Assembly (NCBI GenBank): GCA_041661275.1
Contig: JBAZUU010000005.1
Span: 72-64,071, forward strand
Origin: Parcubacteria group bacterium
GTDB taxonomy: Bacteria; Patescibacteriota; Minisyncoccia; Moranbacterales; UBA2206
Direction: 5' to 3'
DNA length: 64,000 bases
The notes under the pieces were generated by a model. It did no database searches. It saw only the letters and a program-made list of their open reading frames with translations, and was not told the origin of the DNA. The translations under genes were made by a program, and so were the position numbers. Of the stretch, positions 1 to 8,145 are shown piece after piece; the first letter of the stretch is position 1, and every line of letters begins with the position of its first letter.

Positions 1-274
1 TCATTTTGTATTGGAACGGAAACTCATTTGGGTACTTTCTTGTATTGGACAATACTGAGAGTTGTTTTTTTATGAATTTAGTGATATTCTATTGATGTCA
101 CGTTCAACTAAATAGGCTTTGCTTTTTAAGCAAAGGTAGGGTTGTGCCTAGAAATAGGGCAACCTTACTTAAAACAATTGGGCATAACCTGTCTAGTTGG
201 GCGTGACAACCAGTAGGGTTGTCCTTTTTTTATTGGCAATATTACTGGAAAAGTTAATTTGCTAATAAAAAAAT

Positions 275-856
275 ATGCAAAAAACGCCAATAAATTTTGA
301 AAAAATTCATGAAGAATTTGACGGAATGATGTTTGATTTATGCGATGAATGTGGAGGGAGATGTGAAAAAAATAATCTGAGTCTATATTTGCCAGGAGAG
401 GTAGAATTTATTGCAGGGAAGTTAAAAATTAATTTTAAGGACTTTGTAAAAAAGTATTGTAATCTTGTTAAAATATCTGAAAATTCTGAATTGTATATTC
501 AAAAAGCAGGAACTTGTCCGTTCCTGGATAATGATTATCGGTGTACTCTTGAAAAGCCGAATTGCAAAATAATACGCTGCATGCTTTATCCCGTCTTAAT
601 TGGTCATCCAACAGATAAATTTAAAATTTTTCTTGATTATGAGGATTGTCCAATGGCTAATAAATTAACTGATCAGTTTAAAAAACAAGCTTTTAAAATA
701 TACGAAGATATCAGAGATACAATACCTGAATATTGGCTAGAATTTGTTTCAAAATATGATTTTATTACATATGACTATTCCAAATTAGAAAAACTGCGAG
801 ATAAAGAAATAATCACTCCTGAAGAATTAGAAAAGTGCGCAATAAGTTCTCATTAA
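275..856 (+). CDS. YkgJ/UPF0153-family Cys-rich putative Zn/Fe-chelating domain protein
   Basis: Motifs CDECGGRC and CPFLDNDYRCTLEKPNCKIIRCMLYP match the YkgJ-type CxxC...CPFLD..C...C pattern. Confidence 0.55.
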   Translation: MQKTPINFEKIHEEFDGMMFDLCDECGGRCEKNNLSLYLPGEVEFIAGKLKINFKDFVKKYCNLVKISENSELYIQKAGTCPFLDNDYRCTLEKPNCKIIRCMLYPVLIGHPTDKFKIFLDYEDCPMANKLTDQFKKQAFKIYEDIRDTIPEYWLEFVSKYDFITYDYSKLEKLRDKEIITPEELEKCAISSH

Positions 857-1719
857 TCGGACAACTTGCGGAGTAACTTATTATTAATCCTTTTTCTTTT
901 TCCAGAAGATAAAAAATTATTTTTTGAGGTTACCGATTTGCCAGATTTGTGCTCAATATCTTTTCTCGTCCGGCCAGCTACGCCTCCTCCGTCTTTTGCA
1001 TCTCTTTTGAGAAAGTCTAATCCCTTTGAATTTCTGTCGCGATGAAATTTTGTGGTTGTTGCTTCTCCTAACATAGTCAAAATCAATTCTATGTCATCCA
1101 TATGATCACGAAGATTTTCTCGTTTTAGTCCCTTGAACTTTTTATATTCATCTGCCGTCATATCGAAAGCACCTTTCAAAATTTCGTTTGTTAAAATGGC
1201 AAATTCGATATTTTCCCTTGCTCCACGATTTTTCCATTCGTTGGTAAGAGTTTCTCTCACCTCAATGCCTCGCATTCTTTTTTCAATCCATGCTTCAGGA
1301 TATCCTTTCGCTCGATAAATCGCTCGCGCTCTCTGAGCCGCCAATTCCGGATCTTCAATTTCTTGAACTCTTTCATAGCCAACCTTAGCCAACCAACGCT
1401 TAAATGGTTCGGCTTTAGGAGAGGGAATGGATTGGATAATTCGGAGCATAGTTTCAGTATTGGCGCAATCAGTTTCACGCATTTTTCCGTCTGGCGCTTC
1501 CATTTTCAACTGTCCGATTTTTTCGGACACTTCAGAATATCCCTCGTCAATCATCTTTTTTTTCAAATCGCTCCAATACTTCCTTGGTCGGTCACTATTT
1601 GTTAAAATATCAATGACATCAATAATTGAAAACCACCATTCGCTATTATGAATTATTTTTCTTACCGCTTTACCTTTAAAAATGGCAATTCTTGTGCTGT
1701 TCATGACTAAATTATACAA
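853..1719 (-). CDS. Bro-N domain protein (DinD / phage antirepressor-like)
   Basis: N-terminal AIFKGKAVRKIIHNSEWWFSIIDVIDIL is a Bro-N-like signature. Sits beside a recombinase gene. Confidence 0.5.
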   Translation of the reverse strand: MYNLVMNSTRIAIFKGKAVRKIIHNSEWWFSIIDVIDILTNSDRPRKYWSDLKKKMIDEGYSEVSEKIGQLKMEAPDGKMRETDCANTETMLRIIQSIPSPKAEPFKRWLAKVGYERVQEIEDPELAAQRARAIYRAKGYPEAWIEKRMRGIEVRETLTNEWKNRGARENIEFAILTNEILKGAFDMTADEYKKFKGLKRENLRDHMDDIELILTMLGEATTTKFHRDRNSKGLDFLKRDAKDGGGVAGRTRKDIEHKSGKSVTSKNNFLSSGKRKRINNKLLRKLSD

Positions 1720-2051
1720 TAATTCTAGAAAAATAGAAAATATTAAAGCTGTTATTTATATTTCATAATAAAAAAAGGTAAATTTGAAAATAAAATAAAT
1801 TCCGCCACCGCCCGCCGAGACCGCGCGATTTCGCGTCCGGTTCTTTCGGAAAAGAAACCGGACTGCCAAGACTGAAAAATTTTCTTTTCATTTTTGATTT
1901 AAAATCGGCCGCCCATAAAAAATCCGAAAAGTAGAGAAAATTTTTCGAGTGTTGGCACGCAAGTTCTCGTGGGAGAGAACTTGCGGCGAAATCGCGCGCG
2001 TAGGCGGCAGGGCTAAAGTTTTTCGAAAAAGGTTCGAGCATGGTCAAAGAT

Positions 2052-2205
2052 TGCGCACCACAGAGGACTTCGCGATTTTTCGGTCGTCAAAGCCGAAGAG
2101 TGCGCGCCGCGCGCCAAAGCGCGGCGCGCCAGGATTTCAGAGGCGAAATCAAAAGGCGGAGCGAAATTCCAGGAGGCGGTTTTTCCGGAAATCAGGCGGT
2201 TCGTC
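2052..2205. repeat. Left copy of a ~154-bp near-perfect inverted repeat (partner 3735-3888)
   Basis: Reverse complement of 3735-3888 matches 2052-2205 with one mismatch. GC-rich with internal dyad tgcgcgccgcgcgccaaagcgcggcgcgcca. Confidence 0.8.
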
Positions 2206-2355
2206 CTCGCCAAAGGCGAGATAAAACTTTTTGAAAATTTATGGTTCAAAAATTTTCATTTCCAATTTTTGGAGCAAAATAATCCCGCTTTGCGGGATTG
2301 AGGCGATTTTTCCTCTCCCTCACCGAACATTCTTTTGCCACGCCAAAATAAAAAT

Positions 2356-3957
2356 ATGAATACATTATCACAACCAACAAGATATTTTCTCTACATCAGA
2401 AAAAGCACGGATGAGGAAGACCGCCAAGTCTTGAGTTTGGAAGCGCAACTGACGGAACTAAAAGAATTTGCCGAAAAGGAAAGTTTAGAAATAATCGAAA
2501 CATTCGTCGAAAAGAAAACAGCCAAAACTCCAGGACGAGAAATTTTTAACAGTATGCTTCAAAAAATCGAAAGCGGTCTTCCTCATCCGATAGGAATTTT
2601 AGCGTGGCATCCGGACAGATTGTCCAGAAATTCAATTGACGGAGGAAAAATGATTTATCTTTTGGACACCGGAAAATTATCCGACCTGAAATTTCCCACT
2701 TTTGCATTCGAAAACAATCCCAGTGGTAAATTTTTCTTGGCTATCGGACTCTCAAACGCCAAATATTATGTGGACAATCTGTCCGAGAATGTTCGGCGAG
2801 GGAACCGCGCCAAGTTGCGGCGAGGCGAATGGCCCGGACAAAAACCTTTCGGGTATATTTATGATCACCGATTAAGGAATATTGTCCCTGACCCTAAAAA
2901 AGCGAAAATAGTGAAAACTATATACGAAGAATTTACCACCGGCAAACATACCTTAAAATCAATTTCAAATCGCCTCGCCGCGCTTGGCAGCGGTAAAATG
3001 AAATCTAATGGCGCTATTGAACATTTTCTGACCGCTAAACTTTACATGGGCATAATGCCCTGGAAAGGAGAAGTTTATGAAGGCAAATTCCAACCGCTCA
3101 TCTCAAAGCAATTGTTTGCCAAAGTGCAGGAAACATTGAAAAATCGGCGCAAGCCGAGAAAAAGCAAAAAGCGTCATAATTTCCCGTTCGTCGGACTTTT
3201 TCGCTGTTCCTGCGGAGCCATGATAACGGCTCAATTTGCCAAAGGTCATGGCGGAATATACCGCTATTATCGTTGCACTAGAAAACATGGGGCTTGCGCC
3301 GAAAAATATATTCAGGAGCCAGAATTGAAACAGAAGATTGTCGAAAAAATGCAAACAATTGCTTTGCCCTCTGAATGGATAGAAAATATGAAAATTAAAT
3401 TGGAGCAAGAAGAAAAATCACAAGCTCAATTAGCAGGAGCTTTCGCAGAAGCGAATAAAAAGAAAATTATTTTGATTCAGAAAAAATTAGACAAACTATT
3501 GGAAGGATATCTGGATAATCTCATTGACGAAGAAAGCTATCGACGCAAAAAAGAAGAATTGGTGCAACAAAAAACTGCCCTCAAGAATGAGCAGGAGTCG
3601 CTTCTGCGAAAGCAGATGAGCGGGTGGATCGAACCAATGAGAGAATTCATAAACGACCTTAAATACGCAGGAAAAATCGCCTCGGAGCAATCTCTGGAAG
3701 AGATTGCTAATTTTGCGCAAAAAATTGGAACGAACCGCCTGATTTCCGAAAAAACCGCCTCCTGGAATTTCGCTCCGCCTTTTGATTTCGCCTCTGAAAT
3801 CCTGGCGCGCCGCGCTTTGGCGCGCGGCGCGCACTCTTCGGCTTTGACGACCGAAAAATCGCGAAGTCCTCTGTGGTGCGCCCTGCAGGAGTCGAACCTG
3901 CAACCCCTTGGTCCGAAGCCAAGTACTCTATCCATTGAGCTAAGGGCGCATCATTAA
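2356..3957 (+). CDS. Large serine recombinase (resolvase/invertase N-domain, recombinase domain, zinc-ribbon)
   Basis: YIRKSTDEEDRQVLSLEAQ catalytic-Ser motif, RLSRN and a C-terminal CSCG...CTRKHGAC ribbon. ATG at 2356 (track starts at TTG 2335). The 3' end runs through inverted repeat B and over tRNA-Arg on the opposite strand. Confidence 0.85.
   Translation: MNTLSQPTRYFLYIRKSTDEEDRQVLSLEAQLTELKEFAEKESLEIIETFVEKKTAKTPGREIFNSMLQKIESGLPHPIGILAWHPDRLSRNSIDGGKMIYLLDTGKLSDLKFPTFAFENNPSGKFFLAIGLSNAKYYVDNLSENVRRGNRAKLRRGEWPGQKPFGYIYDHRLRNIVPDPKKAKIVKTIYEEFTTGKHTLKSISNRLAALGSGKMKSNGAIEHFLTAKLYMGIMPWKGEVYEGKFQPLISKQLFAKVQETLKNRRKPRKSKKRHNFPFVGLFRCSCGAMITAQFAKGHGGIYRYYRCTRKHGACAEKYIQEPELKQKIVEKMQTIALPSEWIENMKIKLEQEEKSQAQLAGAFAEANKKKIILIQKKLDKLLEGYLDNLIDEESYRRKKEELVQQKTALKNEQESLLRKQMSGWIEPMREFINDLKYAGKIASEQSLEEIANFAQKIGTNRLISEKTASWNFAPPFDFASEILARRALARGAHSSALTTEKSRSPLWCALQESNLQPLGPKPSTLSIELRAHH
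3735..3888. repeat. Right copy of the ~154-bp inverted repeat
   Basis: See 2052-2205. Overlaps the recombinase 3' end and the last ~10 nt of tRNA-Arg(TCG). Confidence 0.8.
3877..3950 (-). tRNA. tRNA-Arg (anticodon TCG)
   Basis: Cloverleaf read by eye: acceptor GCGCCCT/AGGGCGC, T-loop GGTTCGACTCC, anticodon loop CTTCGGA. Confidence 0.85.
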
Positions 3958-3969
3958 ATTTAAAATCCG

Positions 3970-4042
3970 GGCGGTCACTGGGAGTCGGACCCAGATTCTC
4001 GGTACCACAAACCGATGTCTTAACCGTTAGACGATGACCGCC
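3970..4042 (-). tRNA. tRNA-His (GTG) with G-1
   Basis: G-1 + GCGGTCA acceptor, anticodon loop TTGTGGT, T-loop GGGTCCGACTCCC. Confidence 0.85.
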
Positions 4043-4061
4043 ATATTAAATTTTTTTCCAG

Positions 4062-4134
4062 TGCGCCGAGCAGGAATCGAACCTGCGACCAAAAGGTTAG
4101 AAACCTTCTGCTCTATCCACTGAGCTACCGGCGC
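4062..4134 (-). tRNA. tRNA-Arg (TCT)
   Basis: GCGCCGGTAGCTCAGTGGATAGAGC..., anticodon loop TTTCTAA, GGTTCGATTCC. Confidence 0.85.
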
Positions 4135-4153
4135 TTAAAATTGTAAAAAGTAG

Positions 4154-4226
4154 TGCGCCCACCAGGATTCGAACCTGGGACCGTTTGCTTAAGAGGCAAC
4201 TGCTCTACCAGCTGAGCTATGGGCGC
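4154..4226 (-). tRNA. tRNA-Lys (CTT)
   Basis: GCGCCCATAGCTCAGCTGGTAGAGC, loop CTCTTAA, GGTTCGAATCC. Confidence 0.8.
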
Positions 4227-4289
4227 AATATAAAATTGCCTTTTGGCAATAGAAATATATTACCAAGAATAATGCCGACAGTCAACTTG

Positions 4290-4359
4290 TCTCCCACCAC
4301 TTTTTTACTTGCATTAAGAGTGTAAAAAATATTAAAAACAAAAAAAGTGGTGGGGGATA
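4290..4359. repeat. Long palindromic element / bidirectional terminator (tctCCCACCACTTTTTT...AAAAAGTGGTGGGGGAT)
   Basis: ~17-bp perfect arms immediately after the VanW stop codon. Paralogous to 6365-6429. Confidence 0.6.
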
Positions 4360-4361
4360 AA

Positions 4362-5666
4362 TTATATTCCATGCTGTTTTTTATAGGTGGACCATTCTTT
4401 GTCCGACCAGCCGTTGGGTTTTTGAGTGAGGACATCAGAAGTTGTTCCGGGATGGGGATATTTGGAAGGGGAGTCATAGTTACTGTTAAAAGTATCATCG
4501 ATGATTATCTTTCCATTGGTGTCCGTAACTTTTTGCCCGAGCGTCGTTTTCATCGAGCCGTCAGGATTGCGTTCAATTATTTTGGGACCATTAAGCTCTA
4601 CCTTTCTTCCATCATTGGTTCCATAAAAATCGAATATCAGTTCTGTTCCCTCAATTCTGGTCTGGATCAAAATATATTTCGGAGTATTATTCATAAACCG
4701 CAAATCCGGACGGGGGACATAAACTGTCGCGTCCATCCCTTGCGGATTATAATATTGCACCGGATAAGCGTGATTGCGTCTGGCGGTAATTTTCAAGCCG
4801 GAGTTGAGCGCCGCACGGAAAGCAGTAGTGGAAACCTGACAAATTCCACCGCCAAATTCCGGTTCCGTTTTATCTTTTTTAATAACGAGCTCTGGCAGAT
4901 AGCCATGGTCGCCGTCCACTTCCCCCAGAACTTTCACAAAAGAAAAATCTTCCCCGGGTTTTATCAGGACACCGTTAAACCGGTTGGTAGCGACATTGAT
5001 ATTGAAAATTCTGTTTTTAGGCGAGCCTCGAAAATTAGAACGGCCCTCCCCGATAAGATCGCTCACCCCCAGCGCGTCAATTGAATCAACATTGGAAATT
5101 TTCGGGTCGGATTCTTTATATGGAAGATTTAGCGGTTTTTTAAAATCCGCTCCGATAATATAATTCATCAGCATTTCAGCGCTTTTTGCCTCGTCCAGTT
5201 CGATTCCCTTGGTTCCGGAAGAAAATTCTGACACTTTTCCAGCCGCTACCTTTAGCTTGGCATCCTCCGGATTTTTATTAACCTTCAGCGCCAGCGCCGC
5301 GACATAGCTGCCAATTGAATCTTCGTTTATTCTTACGACTGATTTTTTTTGAATATGAATTTTTTTTGACGGTTCAAATGAGAGAGCGCAAAAGAGCGAT
5401 TTTTTGTATCCGCAAAAATTAGAATTTTCTATTTCTGAAAAATATTGCGGATTATAAACCAGCGACGTGGATTCTTCCAGCCATTTTTTTATCTCATCTT
5501 TGGTGGCGGTATAAGTTGTGTCTTTTACGGAAATACTGACAGCATTAGGCAGGCTGGCAGTTACGGAAACCATCGAACCGGATACATCTTTAGCTTGGGT
5601 AGATAATGGCAATGTCAAAAGACATACCAACAAAACAAGGAATTTGTGAAATCCTTTTCCAATCAT
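4362..5666 (-). CDS. VanW-family secreted protein
   Basis: Signal peptide. GGGICQVSTTAFRAALNSGLKITARRNHAYPVQYY is a VanW-domain signature. Confidence 0.75.
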   Translation of the reverse strand: MIGKGFHKFLVLLVCLLTLPLSTQAKDVSGSMVSVTASLPNAVSISVKDTTYTATKDEIKKWLEESTSLVYNPQYFSEIENSNFCGYKKSLFCALSFEPSKKIHIQKKSVVRINEDSIGSYVAALALKVNKNPEDAKLKVAAGKVSEFSSGTKGIELDEAKSAEMLMNYIIGADFKKPLNLPYKESDPKISNVDSIDALGVSDLIGEGRSNFRGSPKNRIFNINVATNRFNGVLIKPGEDFSFVKVLGEVDGDHGYLPELVIKKDKTEPEFGGGICQVSTTAFRAALNSGLKITARRNHAYPVQYYNPQGMDATVYVPRPDLRFMNNTPKYILIQTRIEGTELIFDFYGTNDGRKVELNGPKIIERNPDGSMKTTLGQKVTDTNGKIIIDDTFNSNYDSPSKYPHPGTTSDVLTQKPNGWSDKEWSTYKKQHGI

Positions 5667-5790
5667 ATATTAAGAATATACCAGAAAGTTGACTTAATCA
5701 ACCGGCATTAATATGATCAAAAAAAGAAAACCTTTTTCTGATTTTCTCTTTCTAAAGCTAATTTCTTTTCTAATAAACCAGTCTCCAAAT

Positions 5791-6351
5791 CTAGAAACCT
5801 CTGACTTGGATTTTTTTTGTCCTGGTATTATTGGCTTTCGGCATGCGGATGGTCAAAATTCCGTTTTTCATCGACGCTTCCACTTTGTCAGGGACAATAT
5901 CAATCGGCAAAATGACTGATCGGGAAAAGCCACCCCAATAACATTCCTGGTAATAATAATTTTCGCCGGTGATCTGTTCATCCTGTTTTCTTTCCCCGCG
6001 AATAGTGATCATATCGTTATTGATGCTGACATCCAGATCTTCCGGCTTCACTCCGGCAATGGTAGACTTTATGACGATATCACTGTCGGTCTGATAGACA
6101 TCGATTGTCAATTGTCCCTCAGAATCGTCGGAAGAACGGGAGAAATTTTCGTCCCGGACATTGACATTTGGTCTCACTGGCGGAGAAGCGTAAACTTCCG
6201 TTTCTCTTTCATCCACGTATAAATTTCTGGAAGGTTCCAGACGGTTAGTGTCTATGGGCTGTTCAGTTTCATAAATATCATTTTCCATATCTCTGGCTCC
6301 GGTTAATTTTTCCAAAAATGATCTTTTGACTTTTACCATAATATTTTTCAA
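5791..6351 (-). CDS. Hsp20/alpha-crystallin small heat-shock protein
   Basis: LTIDVYQTD...VKPEDLDVSINNDMITIRGERK...GGFSRSVILP...KVEASMKNGILTIRMPK alpha-crystallin domain. Confidence 0.8.
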   Translation of the reverse strand: MKNIMVKVKRSFLEKLTGARDMENDIYETEQPIDTNRLEPSRNLYVDERETEVYASPPVRPNVNVRDENFSRSSDDSEGQLTIDVYQTDSDIVIKSTIAGVKPEDLDVSINNDMITIRGERKQDEQITGENYYYQECYWGGFSRSVILPIDIVPDKVEASMKNGILTIRMPKANNTRTKKIQVRGF

Positions 6352-6364
6352 AATTTAATGTTTA

Positions 6365-6429
6365 TCCCCCACCACTTTTTCACTTTTTTCTTTCGCACCA
6401 AAGGTGCGAGTGAAAAAGTGGTGGGGGAT
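6365..6429. repeat. Palindromic element (ATCCCCCACCACTTTTTCAC...GTGAAAAAGTGGTGGGGGAT)
   Basis: 20-bp perfect outer arms plus inner tcgcacc/ggtgcga pair. Lies between the stop of 6489-6959 and the hsp20 start. Confidence 0.6.
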
Positions 6430-6488
6430 GAATTAAGGCTAATTGCATTATAGTCCGGAGTGAACTTTTTGGCAAGGTTTCAGCATCA

Positions 6489-6959
6489 TTATAGCAGATA
6501 TATCACTGCCAGGTTGTATAGAATATGGATAACCGAGTTGAAAATGAGAACTCGGGTTGCCATGAAATATCGGTTTTGTTTTTTGGATATAACCATCGCG
6601 GCAAAAATAGAAGTGAAAATATGGACGGATATCATTCCTAAAAGAAAATAAAAAGGAACACTTATCAGGTTTATCTTGCCGTAATAGTTGAGAGAAAGTT
6701 CTGCAGCGGAAAAACCCAGACCCACCAAAAACCCGCCGAAAATTATTGACCGTCTTTTTTCCAGAACAGAGAAGCTTTTGTAAATTACGGCGTATTTGAC
6801 AGTTTCTTCAACCAACGCTGATAGGATGAGGAAAATACTGAAATGAGCAAAGAAAACGACTTGCTTTTCTTCCGGGAAAAAGAGTGAAAAAGAAAGTTCA
6901 AAAAACAAGGCGAAGAGAGCGGCTAAAATTCCCAGAAATAGTGATTTAATAGGAGGCAT
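6489..6959 (-). CDS. Small polytopic membrane protein, possible CPBP/CAAX-type intramembrane protease family
   Basis: Four to five hydrophobic segments; EETVKY and HILYN resemble CPBP motifs 1 and 3. Weak. Confidence 0.4.
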   Translation of the reverse strand: MPPIKSLFLGILAALFALFFELSFSLFFPEEKQVVFFAHFSIFLILSALVEETVKYAVIYKSFSVLEKRRSIIFGGFLVGLGFSAAELSLNYYGKINLISVPFYFLLGMISVHIFTSIFAAMVISKKQNRYFMATRVLIFNSVIHILYNLAVIYLL

Positions 6960-7083
6960 AAATTTCGCTCGGATACATTTTTATTTTTTGCGCGGATTTC
7001 TTCGAACAGTTTATATTTCACTTTAGGACGAGAAATCTATGCAAAAAATAAAAAGTATCCTCGCTCAATAATTAATGTAATTA

Positions 7084-8145
7084 TTATTTTAATCTTAAAT
7101 TAGCGTCGGCTTCCAATTTTTTCCAATTAGAAGATAGTATTTTTTTATTCTTTTGTGACTGATACCGAAAATGTCCAGCCGTAGCGATCATAGCGGCATT
7201 GTCAACGGAGTAAGTCATATCGGGAATAACGTACGAAGTATTTTTTAGTTCCGTATCTATTTTTTCGCCCAATTGACGGCGCAATTCGATGTTGGCTGAT
7301 ACTCCGCCGGCAATCATTATGGTTTTGGGTCTATATCTCCTGGCCGCTCGTATAGTTTTAGAGATTAAAACGTCAATAACCGCTTGCTGAAACTCATGGC
7401 ACATAGCGGATACATAATCTTTATTCTTAATTAGTTCAGGATGCTTTTTGGTTTCATACAAAACGGCGGTTTTCAGGCCAGAGAAAGAGAAGTCAAAATT
7501 CTTAGAATTAATCATCGGACGAGGCATGGCTAGCTTATAGTTGTTAGCTTTTAGCTTATAGGAATTGGCTGTTTTTGAAATAATTGGACCGCCTGGGTAA
7601 TCGAGTCCCAAAATTCTCGCTACTTTGTCAAAGGCTTCACCGGCCGCGTCATCCAGAGTCTGCCCGACTATTTCATAATTAAGATGTTTTTTCATCAACA
7701 CCAATTGCGTATGTCCGCCAGAAACTACAAGACAGAGAAGTGGAAATTTTATTCCTGATTTTTGATTTTTGCCAACGAAGTTGGCGTATATATGTCCTTC
7801 AATATGATGAATACCGATTAAGGGTTTTCCCCAAGAATAAGAAAGGGTCTTGGCGGAATTGACGCCGATGAGAAGGGCGGGGATGAGGCCTGGACCTGCG
7901 GTAACAGCAATAAGATCAATTTTTTCCGGAGTAACCCTGGCAGTTTTCAGCGCTCTTTTTATCACTGGCAAAATATTTTTCAAGTGTTCTCTGGCCGCCA
8001 AATTAGGCACAACACCACCCCATTTTGAATGAAGTGCTATTTGAGAAGAAACGACATTTGACAGCACTGAGATTCCTTTGAAATTCGCGGAAATTATGGC
8101 GGCCGCTGTCTCATCGCATGATGTTTCTATGCCTAAAATAATCAT
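7084..8145 (-). CDS. tsaD: tRNA N6-adenosine threonylcarbamoyltransferase TsaD (Kae1/Gcp)
   Basis: MIILGIETSCDETAAAI...GHIYANFV...VSGGHTQLV... are canonical TsaD motifs. Confidence 0.9.
   Translation of the reverse strand: MIILGIETSCDETAAAIISANFKGISVLSNVVSSQIALHSKWGGVVPNLAAREHLKNILPVIKRALKTARVTPEKIDLIAVTAGPGLIPALLIGVNSAKTLSYSWGKPLIGIHHIEGHIYANFVGKNQKSGIKFPLLCLVVSGGHTQLVLMKKHLNYEIVGQTLDDAAGEAFDKVARILGLDYPGGPIISKTANSYKLKANNYKLAMPRPMINSKNFDFSFSGLKTAVLYETKKHPELIKNKDYVSAMCHEFQQAVIDVLISKTIRAARRYRPKTIMIAGGVSANIELRRQLGEKIDTELKNTSYVIPDMTYSVDNAAMIATAGHFRYQSQKNKKILSSNWKKLEADANLRLK

Follow-up and report, generated by a model that had tools for sequence, protein, structure and literature searches.

The 64-kb stretch of contig JBAZUU010000005.1 from a Parcubacteria group bacterium analyzed here (hereafter the window) contains, close to its left end, a large serine recombinase gene that lies within an inverted repeat and runs into the 3' end of a convergent tRNA-Arg(TCG) gene (Table 1). 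The gene closes an operon of four tRNAs (Lys, Arg, His, Arg; 3874-4226). To the left of the repeat we observe a structured non-coding region (nc) and two genes, one with a Bro-N domain and one encoding a CxxCxxCC-like protein. We propose that the locus belongs to a serine-integrase island that carries two inverted copies of its attP region, one of which is split by integration into the tRNA gene, a reading to which we give a probability of about 0.8.

The locus was compared with its relatives, 80 loci having been retrieved from genomes and 80 from metagenomes; 163 loci carry the recombinase gene, and homologues down to 47% identity match over the whole protein. The tRNA genes were called with ARAGORN, RNA families with Rfam, and protein domains with Pfam. 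The loci (designated by L and a number) come mostly from assemblies of Patescibacteria/Candidate Phyla Radiation (CPR), and more than 100 islands have a common layout.

Table 1 Features at the left end of the window and their proposed roles.
Feature	Position	Strand	Remarks
Cargo, right-hand part	1-1800		Continues left of the window
CxxCxxCC-like gene	275-856	+	Weak Pfam match, E = 0.01, under its cut-off
Bro-N domain gene	853-1719	-	Pfam Bro-N, E = 4.6e-14
Structured non-coding region (nc)	1801-2022	+	GC-rich; inner segment of the second repeat pair's near arm
T-loop mimic	2023-2052	+	tcgaaaaaGGTTCGAGCatggtcaaagatt; proposed P-type half-site; matrix score 28.5
Left arm of inverted repeat	2053-2204	+	X arm (P' side) of the intact attP-like site
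Core GCGCAC	2053-2058		Common to all three sites; also tRNA acceptor end, 3876-3881, minus strand
Region upstream of recombinase gene	2205-2355	+	Terminator-like hairpin 2281-2299 with T-runs, both strands
Large serine recombinase gene	2356-3957	+	533 aa from ATG at 2356; 540 aa from upstream TTG
Right arm of inverted repeat	3730-3881	-	X arm of the attL-like junction; codes for recombinase residues ~459-509
tRNA-Arg(TCG)	3874-3949	-	ARAGORN; Rfam tRNA, 70 bits; intact; T-arm is the proposed B-type half-site

The recombinase gene, its repeat and its tRNA targets

The two arms of the repeat are 152 nt long and 99% complementary, with 1525 nt between them. Base-by-base comparison reveals a single mismatch, C versus T at 2185, and a sharp drop in identity at both ends. 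The original prediction, made from the sequence of the window, had described such a repeat with one mismatch; its left coordinates agree with ours to within 1 nt, whereas its right ones (3735-3888) are shifted by 5-7 nt. It had also placed the right copy over the 3' end of tRNA-Arg(TCG), where we find an overlap of 8 nt. Within the window, this inverted repeat is the only strong match of the region (E = 2e-76), and since the same arrangement occurs in 117 of the 163 related loci, a chance origin is excluded. Around the gene in these 117 loci, the repeat has a median length of 132 nt (range 33-307) and a median identity of 99%, and 44 repeats are perfect; 43 of the 46 loci that have no repeat are truncated where their contig stops. 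In each locus, the outermost 4-8 nt of both arms are the same as the 3' end of the adjoining tRNA. In the window, the outer 8 nt of the right arm are the last 8 nt of tRNA-Arg(TCG), GCGCACCA, which the left arm has as well; we propose that the last bases of this tRNA, CCA included, are supplied by the element. In one locus (L103, 3695-5599), the arms around the recombinase gene come from different subfamilies (GCACCAAATTGGACTTCGTG... upstream, CGCACAACAAAGGACTTCGTG... downstream), and this chimeric element shows that the arms need not be identical.

An inverted repeat of this kind could be a collapsed or chimeric duplicate made by the assembler, an objection that the original prediction had itself raised. 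Fold-back chimeras do arise in metagenome assemblies, and many of the related contigs stop at or near the repeats. Nevertheless, the architecture recurs in 117 loci from many studies and assemblers, among them contigs of 0.5-1.1 Mb, CP174360.1, which was deposited as a complete chromosome, and Chitinophagaceae PMP191F, a genome record that is not labeled as a metagenome-assembled genome. Moreover, the arms differ among loci, yet always fit the end of the neighboring tRNA. Because the same architecture is found in independent assemblies, we regard an artefact as practically excluded. With their 150-400 bp, the repeats seem to fragment metagenome assemblies where tRNA genes lie and to render the orientation of a module in contigs unreliable.

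The recombinase comprises a Resolvase domain (PF00239, residues 11-159, E = 1.1e-18), a Recombinase domain (PF07508, residues 180-264; DNA-binding domain 1, DBD1), and then a Zn_ribbon_recom domain (PF13408, residues 277-332; DBD2). In an alignment of 21 sequences, residues Y13, R15, S17, and Q24 are invariant, as are C284, C286, C307, and C314 of the zinc ribbon. In serine integrases, DBD2 has a coiled-coil insertion that governs directionality; residues ~335-430 of the recombinase look heptad-like by eye (KLDKLLEGYLDNLIDEE...). The nearest solved relative with C-terminal domains is the SPbeta integrase (E = 6e-6), and an exact-protein look-up of the window recombinase returned no record. In the region upstream of the gene, hairpin sites are seen on the minus strand (2299-2281) and on the plus strand (2286-2305), the hairpin at 2281-2299 being conserved in L100 and L103.

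A convergent tRNA gene abuts the right arm in 78 of the 103 loci with enough flank, and 32 isoacceptor types are represented according to ARAGORN. One close subfamily occupies the genes for Arg-CCG, Arg-TCG, Arg-TCT, Arg-GCG, Tyr-GTA, Leu-GAG, and Lys-CTT, and the element is therefore mobile. By eye, the tRNA-Arg(TCT) and tRNA-Lys(CTT) genes of the window's own operon (4058-4237) also end in GCGCAC, which makes them potential secondary targets of an intact internal attP. Among the tRNAs that ARAGORN calls near islands, we also observe the anticodons TTA ('Stop') and CTA ('Pyl'), at L011 1832-1905 and L037 6670-6745; these may be suppressor tRNAs or may indicate an altered genetic code in those Patescibacteria.

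A T-loop mimic, a second repeat pair and a model of the island

Directly outside the left arm, every locus carries the motif AAAA-n-GGTTCG-nGC. In the window, this mimic duplicates the GGTTCGA box of the tRNA T-loop that lies outside the right arm, the box ending 15 nt from the arm boundary in the mimic and 10 nt from it in the real T-loop. The mimic box is farther from the boundary than the T-loop box by 5 nt in 55 loci, 6 nt in 18, and 4 nt in two, and unselected histograms of the GTTCR distance peak at 18 nt for the mimic and 13 nt for the tRNA. In serine integrases, the DBD2 motif lies 5 bp (4 bp in SPbeta) nearer the center in attB than in attP half-sites, and its position is what tells attB from attP (PMC11722253). 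Since the observed offset fits this published rule, we interpret the mimic as a putative P-type half-site and the tRNA T-arm as a putative B-type half-site. A pseudo-tRNA at the left flank was also considered and rejected, since T-stem pairing is lacking and ARAGORN makes no call there. In L164, L051, L054, L053, and others, the mimic recurs in degenerate form, for example as TTGGTCGCGCGCAAA, and in the window it does so as aaaatcGGCCGCCCataaaa at 1905-1917; this further copy sits in the loop of a long AT-rich hairpin within the structured region, and the contigs of L087, L092, L165, and L166 end exactly at it.

When the loci were scanned with a position weight matrix of the mimic, trained on 86 loci, many of them showed a second, identical mimic on the opposite strand, 0.8-4.5 kb further left. 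Self-comparison revealed a second inverted repeat pair (IR2) in 37 loci, with a median length of 164 nt (range 82-372) and a median identity of 98.8%. Its near arm consists of nc, the mimic, and the first 3-10 nt of the first repeat, its far arm is the inverse of this, and 0.1-4.3 kb of cargo lie between them. The recombinase cassette is thus not self-contained, contrary to what had been suggested from the window alone; its repeat is one half of a larger duplication, the second pair of which brackets the cargo. The near arm (1801-2058) is highly structured when folded as DNA (-75 kcal/mol, z = -8.3 versus shuffles), and the related nc regions of other loci are also hairpin-rich, although too divergent across subfamilies to be aligned. 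A search of positions 1-8000 against Rfam (E <= 1) returned the four tRNAs and chance matches of microRNA type, with no known family on nc or on the arms.

Nearly all loci have the layout mimic-core-X upstream of the recombinase gene, X being the arm of the first repeat. Together with the two junctions of the island this gives three sites in one orientation, namely mimic-core-D (attR-like, D being what follows the core in the target), mimic-core-X (attP-like), and tRNA-core-X (attL-like). In L053, for instance, all three have GTACCAG in common. The cores measure 3-10 nt and are bounded alike in about 30 loci. In L046 and L032, just 26 nt and 5 nt, respectively, separate the far arm from the tRNA that comes next in the cluster; in these loci, the complete unit is thus inserted precisely between two tRNA genes. 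In L101, the tRNA now runs into X and the displaced original end, ...GCACCA, is found at the far junction; the exchange is therefore confined to GCAC. Further support for a crossover at the core comes from hybrid arrays such as L100, where the order tRNA-Leu, X'-small ORF-mimic', X-recombinase (ORF, open reading frame) includes a hybrid site, as expected if a recombinase-less element of another subfamily had integrated into an occupied tRNA site; L097, L035, and L172 hold similar arrays. Hybrid junctions of the attL and attR type and a common core of 3-10 nt are thus observed, and CA is the sole dinucleotide common to all cores examined. The crossover is probably a dinucleotide in the core, with CA at the acceptor/discriminator position as the candidate.

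The recombinase-less element of L100 (5540-6240), which has a small ORF of ~100 aa and lies between the tRNA and a recombinase-bearing island, may be a satellite mobilized in trans. L172 has two recombinase genes (1-1531 and 3141-4663), 83% identical over 1.5 kb and inverted, on one 5.2-kb contig.

For the window's own element, whose cargo extends beyond the left end of the 64 kb, the other end is provided by a contig of 299,612 nt (L165). This contig, which also encodes the CxxCxxCC-like protein, agrees with window 1-2058 at 100% identity; the two part immediately after GCGCAC, where L165 passes into host DNA (GCGCAC followed by ataaaaaatcccccgctatagcgggggattttt). Past the divergence it shows ataaaaaatcccccgctatagcgggggatttttgcg, a hairpin with a T-run resembling an intrinsic terminator (ccccCGCtataGCGgggg and TTTTT), and then pilus genes. 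Because tRNA-Arg(TCG) is the last gene of its operon, we read this hairpin as the operon's native terminator. In the other direction, L165 extends 1.59 kb beyond the window start, through an rve-like gene, to the far arm, where its positions 1-129 match the reverse complement of window 1800-1928 at 100% before the contig end cuts the arm. Self-comparison detected no far arm inside the 64-kb window, since the cargo runs off the window start. The rve-like gene (L165 288-1535, 1.3-0.05 kb left of the window start) encodes 415 aa with a weak match to rve, the DDE integrase core, and may be an insertion sequence nested in the cargo.

The window therefore very probably holds the tRNA-proximal end of an integrative island of ~5.6 kb, in the order far arm, cargo (rve-like, CxxCxxCC-like, and Bro-N genes), near arm (1801-2058), X (2053-2204), recombinase module, X (3730-3881), and tRNA. 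This bears out the idea of an integrated element at the tRNA cluster, with the Bro-N and CxxCxxCC-like genes as its cargo. The target before insertion would have read tRNA-Arg...GGGCGCAC, ATAAAAAA, and the hairpin, and the predicted empty site would join tRNA-Arg...GGGCGCAC to ATAAAAAATCCCCCGC, that is, tRNA-Arg...GCGCAC and then ataaaaaatcccccgc. Across the family, the heterogeneous cargo includes radical SAM proteins, helix-turn-helix regulators, DNA methyltransferases, and LexA/S24-like, SocA/Panacea, and SLOG domains, with no conserved replication gene and no conserved small or directionality gene among them. The precise insertion at a tRNA 3' end, the restored tRNA, and the variable cargo are those of an integrative genomic island. 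On the other side of the tRNA operon, two copies of a hairpin with arms of ~25 nt (TTGTCTCCCACCACTTTTTT ... AAAAAAGTGGTGGGGGATAAATT), both intergenic (4284-4363 and 6361-6432), flank a VanW-like and an Hsp20-like gene; they look like a repeated terminator or a palindrome of the repetitive extragenic (REP) type.

In the model that we propose, the attP-like site is asymmetric, made of the T-loop mimic (AAAAA-GGTTCGnGC), a short core, and arm X. The core is identical to the last bases of the target tRNA, and X also encodes the C-terminus of the recombinase. The tRNA gene's 3' end would serve as attB, with its T-loop box as B-type half-site, 5 bp nearer the core than the mimic box. The whole attP region (nc, mimic, core, and X, ~400 bp in the window) would be carried twice, in inverted orientation, on a putative free circular form, the two copies separating the recombinase module from the cargo module. 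Integration through one copy into tRNA-core-D would then yield attL (tRNA-core-X, the right arm) and attR (mimic-core-D, the far cargo end), and the other copy would stay intact as the left arm with its flank. The integrated island would thus possess two abutting inverted-repeat pairs that meet at the core, and gene conversion may keep the arms identical. The model explains the two repeat pairs, their abutting at the core, and the position of the recombinase module, which is always beside the tRNA.

Two other schemes were dropped. A palindromic attP formed from joined arms predicts a displaced tRNA end beside the left arm, which is absent, and a single attP x attB inversion switch predicts two sites, of which there are three. 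We also considered an insertion sequence-like transposon, with the 152-bp repeats as terminal inverted repeats and the serine recombinase as transposase. The unit from 2053 to 3881 is indeed compact (1.83 kb, a single gene), many homologue contigs measure just 1.7-2.3 kb, and the family is found at many different tRNA genes. The short contigs are, however, what assembly breaks at long repeats would produce. In addition, the mimic and nc outside the left repeat are conserved within subfamilies and duplicated at the far cargo end, and the true boundaries of the insertion are the tRNA end and the far mimic-core junction (L046, L032, and L165). The repeats are thus not the ends of the mobile unit, nor are they set in unrelated flanks, and a transposon of this type is very improbable.

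Several observations weigh against the two-copy island model. IR2 is seen in only 25 of the 48 loci whose left flank reaches 3 kb or more; the negative loci may have longer cargo, as in the window's element, or no far arm. In the window's element, this arm is known only from a 129-nt piece at a contig end. No empty tRNA site was recovered from the same lineage, and a look-up of the VanW neighbor matched only short contigs that end in the tRNA cluster. The free circular form was not recovered either; viral contigs gave only two partial N-terminal matches to the recombinase and thus no support for a phage-borne or free form. Furthermore, no recombination directionality factor was found in the cargo, which leaves excision unexplained, such factors being too diverse to be recognized by sequence, and an intact second attP beside an expressed integrase looks hazardous for the host. 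Finally, there are exceptions to the layout, namely L103 with its two unlike X arms, L172 with mimic sites on both sides of the complete recombinase copy and a second, inverted copy, and L058 with tRNA genes on both sides.

In L058 (4777-6601), the recombinase module lies between two convergent tRNA-Leu genes (CAA and GAG) instead of between a tRNA and a mimic. Recombination of the intact internal attP with another tRNA gene would be expected to yield this arrangement.

Orientation of the modules

The recombinase ORF enters the right arm near residue 459 and stops within the antisense of the tRNA, its last 24 codons being the antisense strand of the tRNA gene. Nearly all homologues end in W(C/S)..(D/E)SN(L/P)RP, the tail that results when a tRNA CCA end and T-loop are translated in antisense. 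A small number end in ...ARTFFE.., which resembles the window's alternative tail, ...WCAIFDHARTFFEKL followed by a stop, encoded by the minus strand of the left arm (ORF 2013-2249). The original prediction had pointed out this second tail and had proposed that an inversion would fuse the recombinase to it. Among its relatives, the recombinase module does occur in both orientations and both tails are found, the alternative one for example in P0002/P0003 as ...WCPLFENARTFFERN and a stop. Among ~85 full-length homologues, at least 63 have a tRNA-type tail and at least 11 a mimic-type tail. The flipped state, with the order tRNA, X, promoter, recombinase, X, and reverse-complement mimic, is shown by L131 and L140, which overlap at 100% identity, and is also seen in L118, L137, L138, L147, L161, L001/L002, and L173. 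Cargo genes mostly point in the direction of the tRNA, L001 and L173 differing in this respect. All orientation isomers of recombinase and cargo thus exist, in skewed proportions, and the same host locus was not seen in both orientations among the fetched loci.

The inversion had been ascribed to a GC-rich dyad in the arms, which would act as the crossover of an invertase-like reaction with the swap of the recombinase C-terminus as its main consequence. The dyad is indeed present in both arms (2101-2131 and 3803-3833; stem GCGCGCCGCGC, loop GCCAAA; as a GC hairpin, 2102-2129 and its twin at 3805-3832), 45-50 nt inside the arm, and both tails are used in nature. For 20 diverse arms, however, RNAalifold predicts a 10-pair hairpin at the dyad, 8 of the 10 pairs having compensatory changes on both sides. 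Since the structure is kept while the sequence varies, as is typical of a hairpin, the dyad is a hairpin and not the crossover core. The exchange maps to the 3-10 nt core at the tRNA end, 45-50 nt away, as judged from the three-site comparisons, the repeat boundaries, the hybrid sites, and the far junction, and the two tails diverge only beyond the end of the conserved protein. A crossover at the dyad is accordingly highly unlikely. Given that X always follows the tRNA, its hairpin may serve in tRNA 3'-end formation or termination.

A different question is whether inversion of the recombinase module, and of the cargo module too, is the work of the integrase and needs no directionality factor. 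Within each pair of sites the inner arms are identical, so that inversion would recreate both sites as they were and would make a normally one-way integrase reversible. The two orientations of the recombinase module, the occurrence of all combinations with the cargo (L001 versus L173), the near-perfect arms of most loci, and the relative orientation of the cores, which is right for inversion, are consistent with such a switch. So is the junction of the Bro-N cargo end, which is joined to X in the window and to host DNA in L165, although the two assemblies are 100% identical up to it; this difference reflects either a genuine cargo inversion or the assembler's choice through a 259-nt repeat. 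In the absence of a directionality factor, the known serine integrases recombine only attP x attB (PMC11722253). Under these directionality rules, attP x attL and attP x attR, the pairs available here, are not expected to recombine. Moreover, the strong skew, with ~85% tRNA-type tails and cargo mostly pointing with the tRNA, argues against fast free flipping, and RecA-type recombination between perfect repeats of 150-370 bp would give the same products. We therefore consider self-inversion by the integrase rather unlikely. The isomers could stem from the use of either attP copy at integration or from homologous recombination between the 150-370 bp perfect arms.

We likewise doubt, without dismissing it, that the duplicated inverted attP is a functional device, that is, a reversible switch built from a one-way integrase. 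If it were, the switch might set the expression of recombinase or cargo relative to read-through from the tRNA operon, or, as in the 2-micron plasmid, might operate in the free state. If it supported reversible inversion, the architecture would also be directly relevant to genome engineering with recombinases and to genetic switches.

Significance and comparison with known systems

The loci make up a large family of small islands that carry cargo, apparently without a description in the literature that we searched. Assemblies of Patescibacteria/CPR, about whose mobile elements little is known, supply the majority of examples. The family places serine integrases at tRNA 3' ends, a niche usually tied to tyrosine integrases. 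The T-loop box and the mimic displaced by 5 bp exemplify in nature, and throughout the family, the half-site rule that underlies the directionality of integrases, and more than 100 predicted attP/attB pairs with a near-universal target motif become available. Our literature search, which left many subscription papers outside its reach, found no serine integrase targeting tRNA 3' ends with a T-loop mimic, no duplicated inverted attP, no recombinase ORF that crosses the core, and no such elements in Patescibacteria. The duplicated inverted attP is thus apparently a new architecture, although it may have been described before.

The protein and the logic of its sites are those of serine integrases. 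The domain set is the same as in the integrases of phiC31, Bxb1, A118/LI, and SPbeta. As in these systems, attP and attB are asymmetric sites around a short core (~50 and 40 bp in the known systems), integration yields hybrid attL and attR, and the offset of the T-loop boxes matches the 5-bp shift of the zinc-ribbon motif toward the center of attB. Unlike known serine integrases, the enzymes described here have as their target the very 3' end of tRNA genes, with many isoacceptor types among them, by putative recognition of the T-loop box, which attP mimics. Their attP region is present twice and inverted, the recombinase ORF always crosses the core into the flank, no directionality factor is identified, and the relation to the solved integrases is a distant one (E = 6e-6).

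With the tRNA-targeting islands and prophages of tyrosine integrases (P4-like, Ms6, and tycheposons), the family shares insertion at the tRNA 3' end with restoration of that end, a small variable cargo, and tandem accretion at one tRNA. The tyrosine-integrase elements have direct repeats of the 3' part of the tRNA, tens of bp long, whereas here the shared segment measures 3-10 nt, the enzyme is a serine recombinase, and the large repeats are inverted.

The layout also recalls the yeast 2-micron plasmid with its Flp/FRT system, and other replicons in which large inverted repeats set two unique segments apart. In the free form proposed here, two large identical inverted repeats, each with the recombinase's own site, would likewise set a recombinase module apart from a second module, and isomers that differ in the orientation of the segments exist. 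Flp is a tyrosine recombinase that inverts freely, and 2-micron is a replicating plasmid. Here, the cargo has no conserved replication gene, the free form is a reconstruction, and inversion by the integrase is a hypothesis; the likeness is one of layout only.

The DNA invertases Hin, Gin, Cin, and Pin resemble the islands in that inverted repeats enclose a serine recombinase gene, Hin being situated inside its invertible segment, and in that the two orientations both occur in nature. These invertases have ~190 aa with a C-terminal helix-turn-helix, act on 26-bp sites at the ends of the repeats, and require Fis and an enhancer. The enzyme of the window, in contrast, is of integrase type with 533 aa, and is found with repeats of ~150 bp and hybrid tRNA/mimic sites, which sets it apart from the small invertases.

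Finally, in the intP/attP system of myxophage Mx8 and in SSV1-type integrases, recombination alters the 3' end of the integrase ORF, so that integrated and free forms differ in their C-terminus, as is also the case here. Both are tyrosine recombinases with a single attP inside the integrase gene. In the islands described here, only the non-conserved tail beyond the conserved protein changes.

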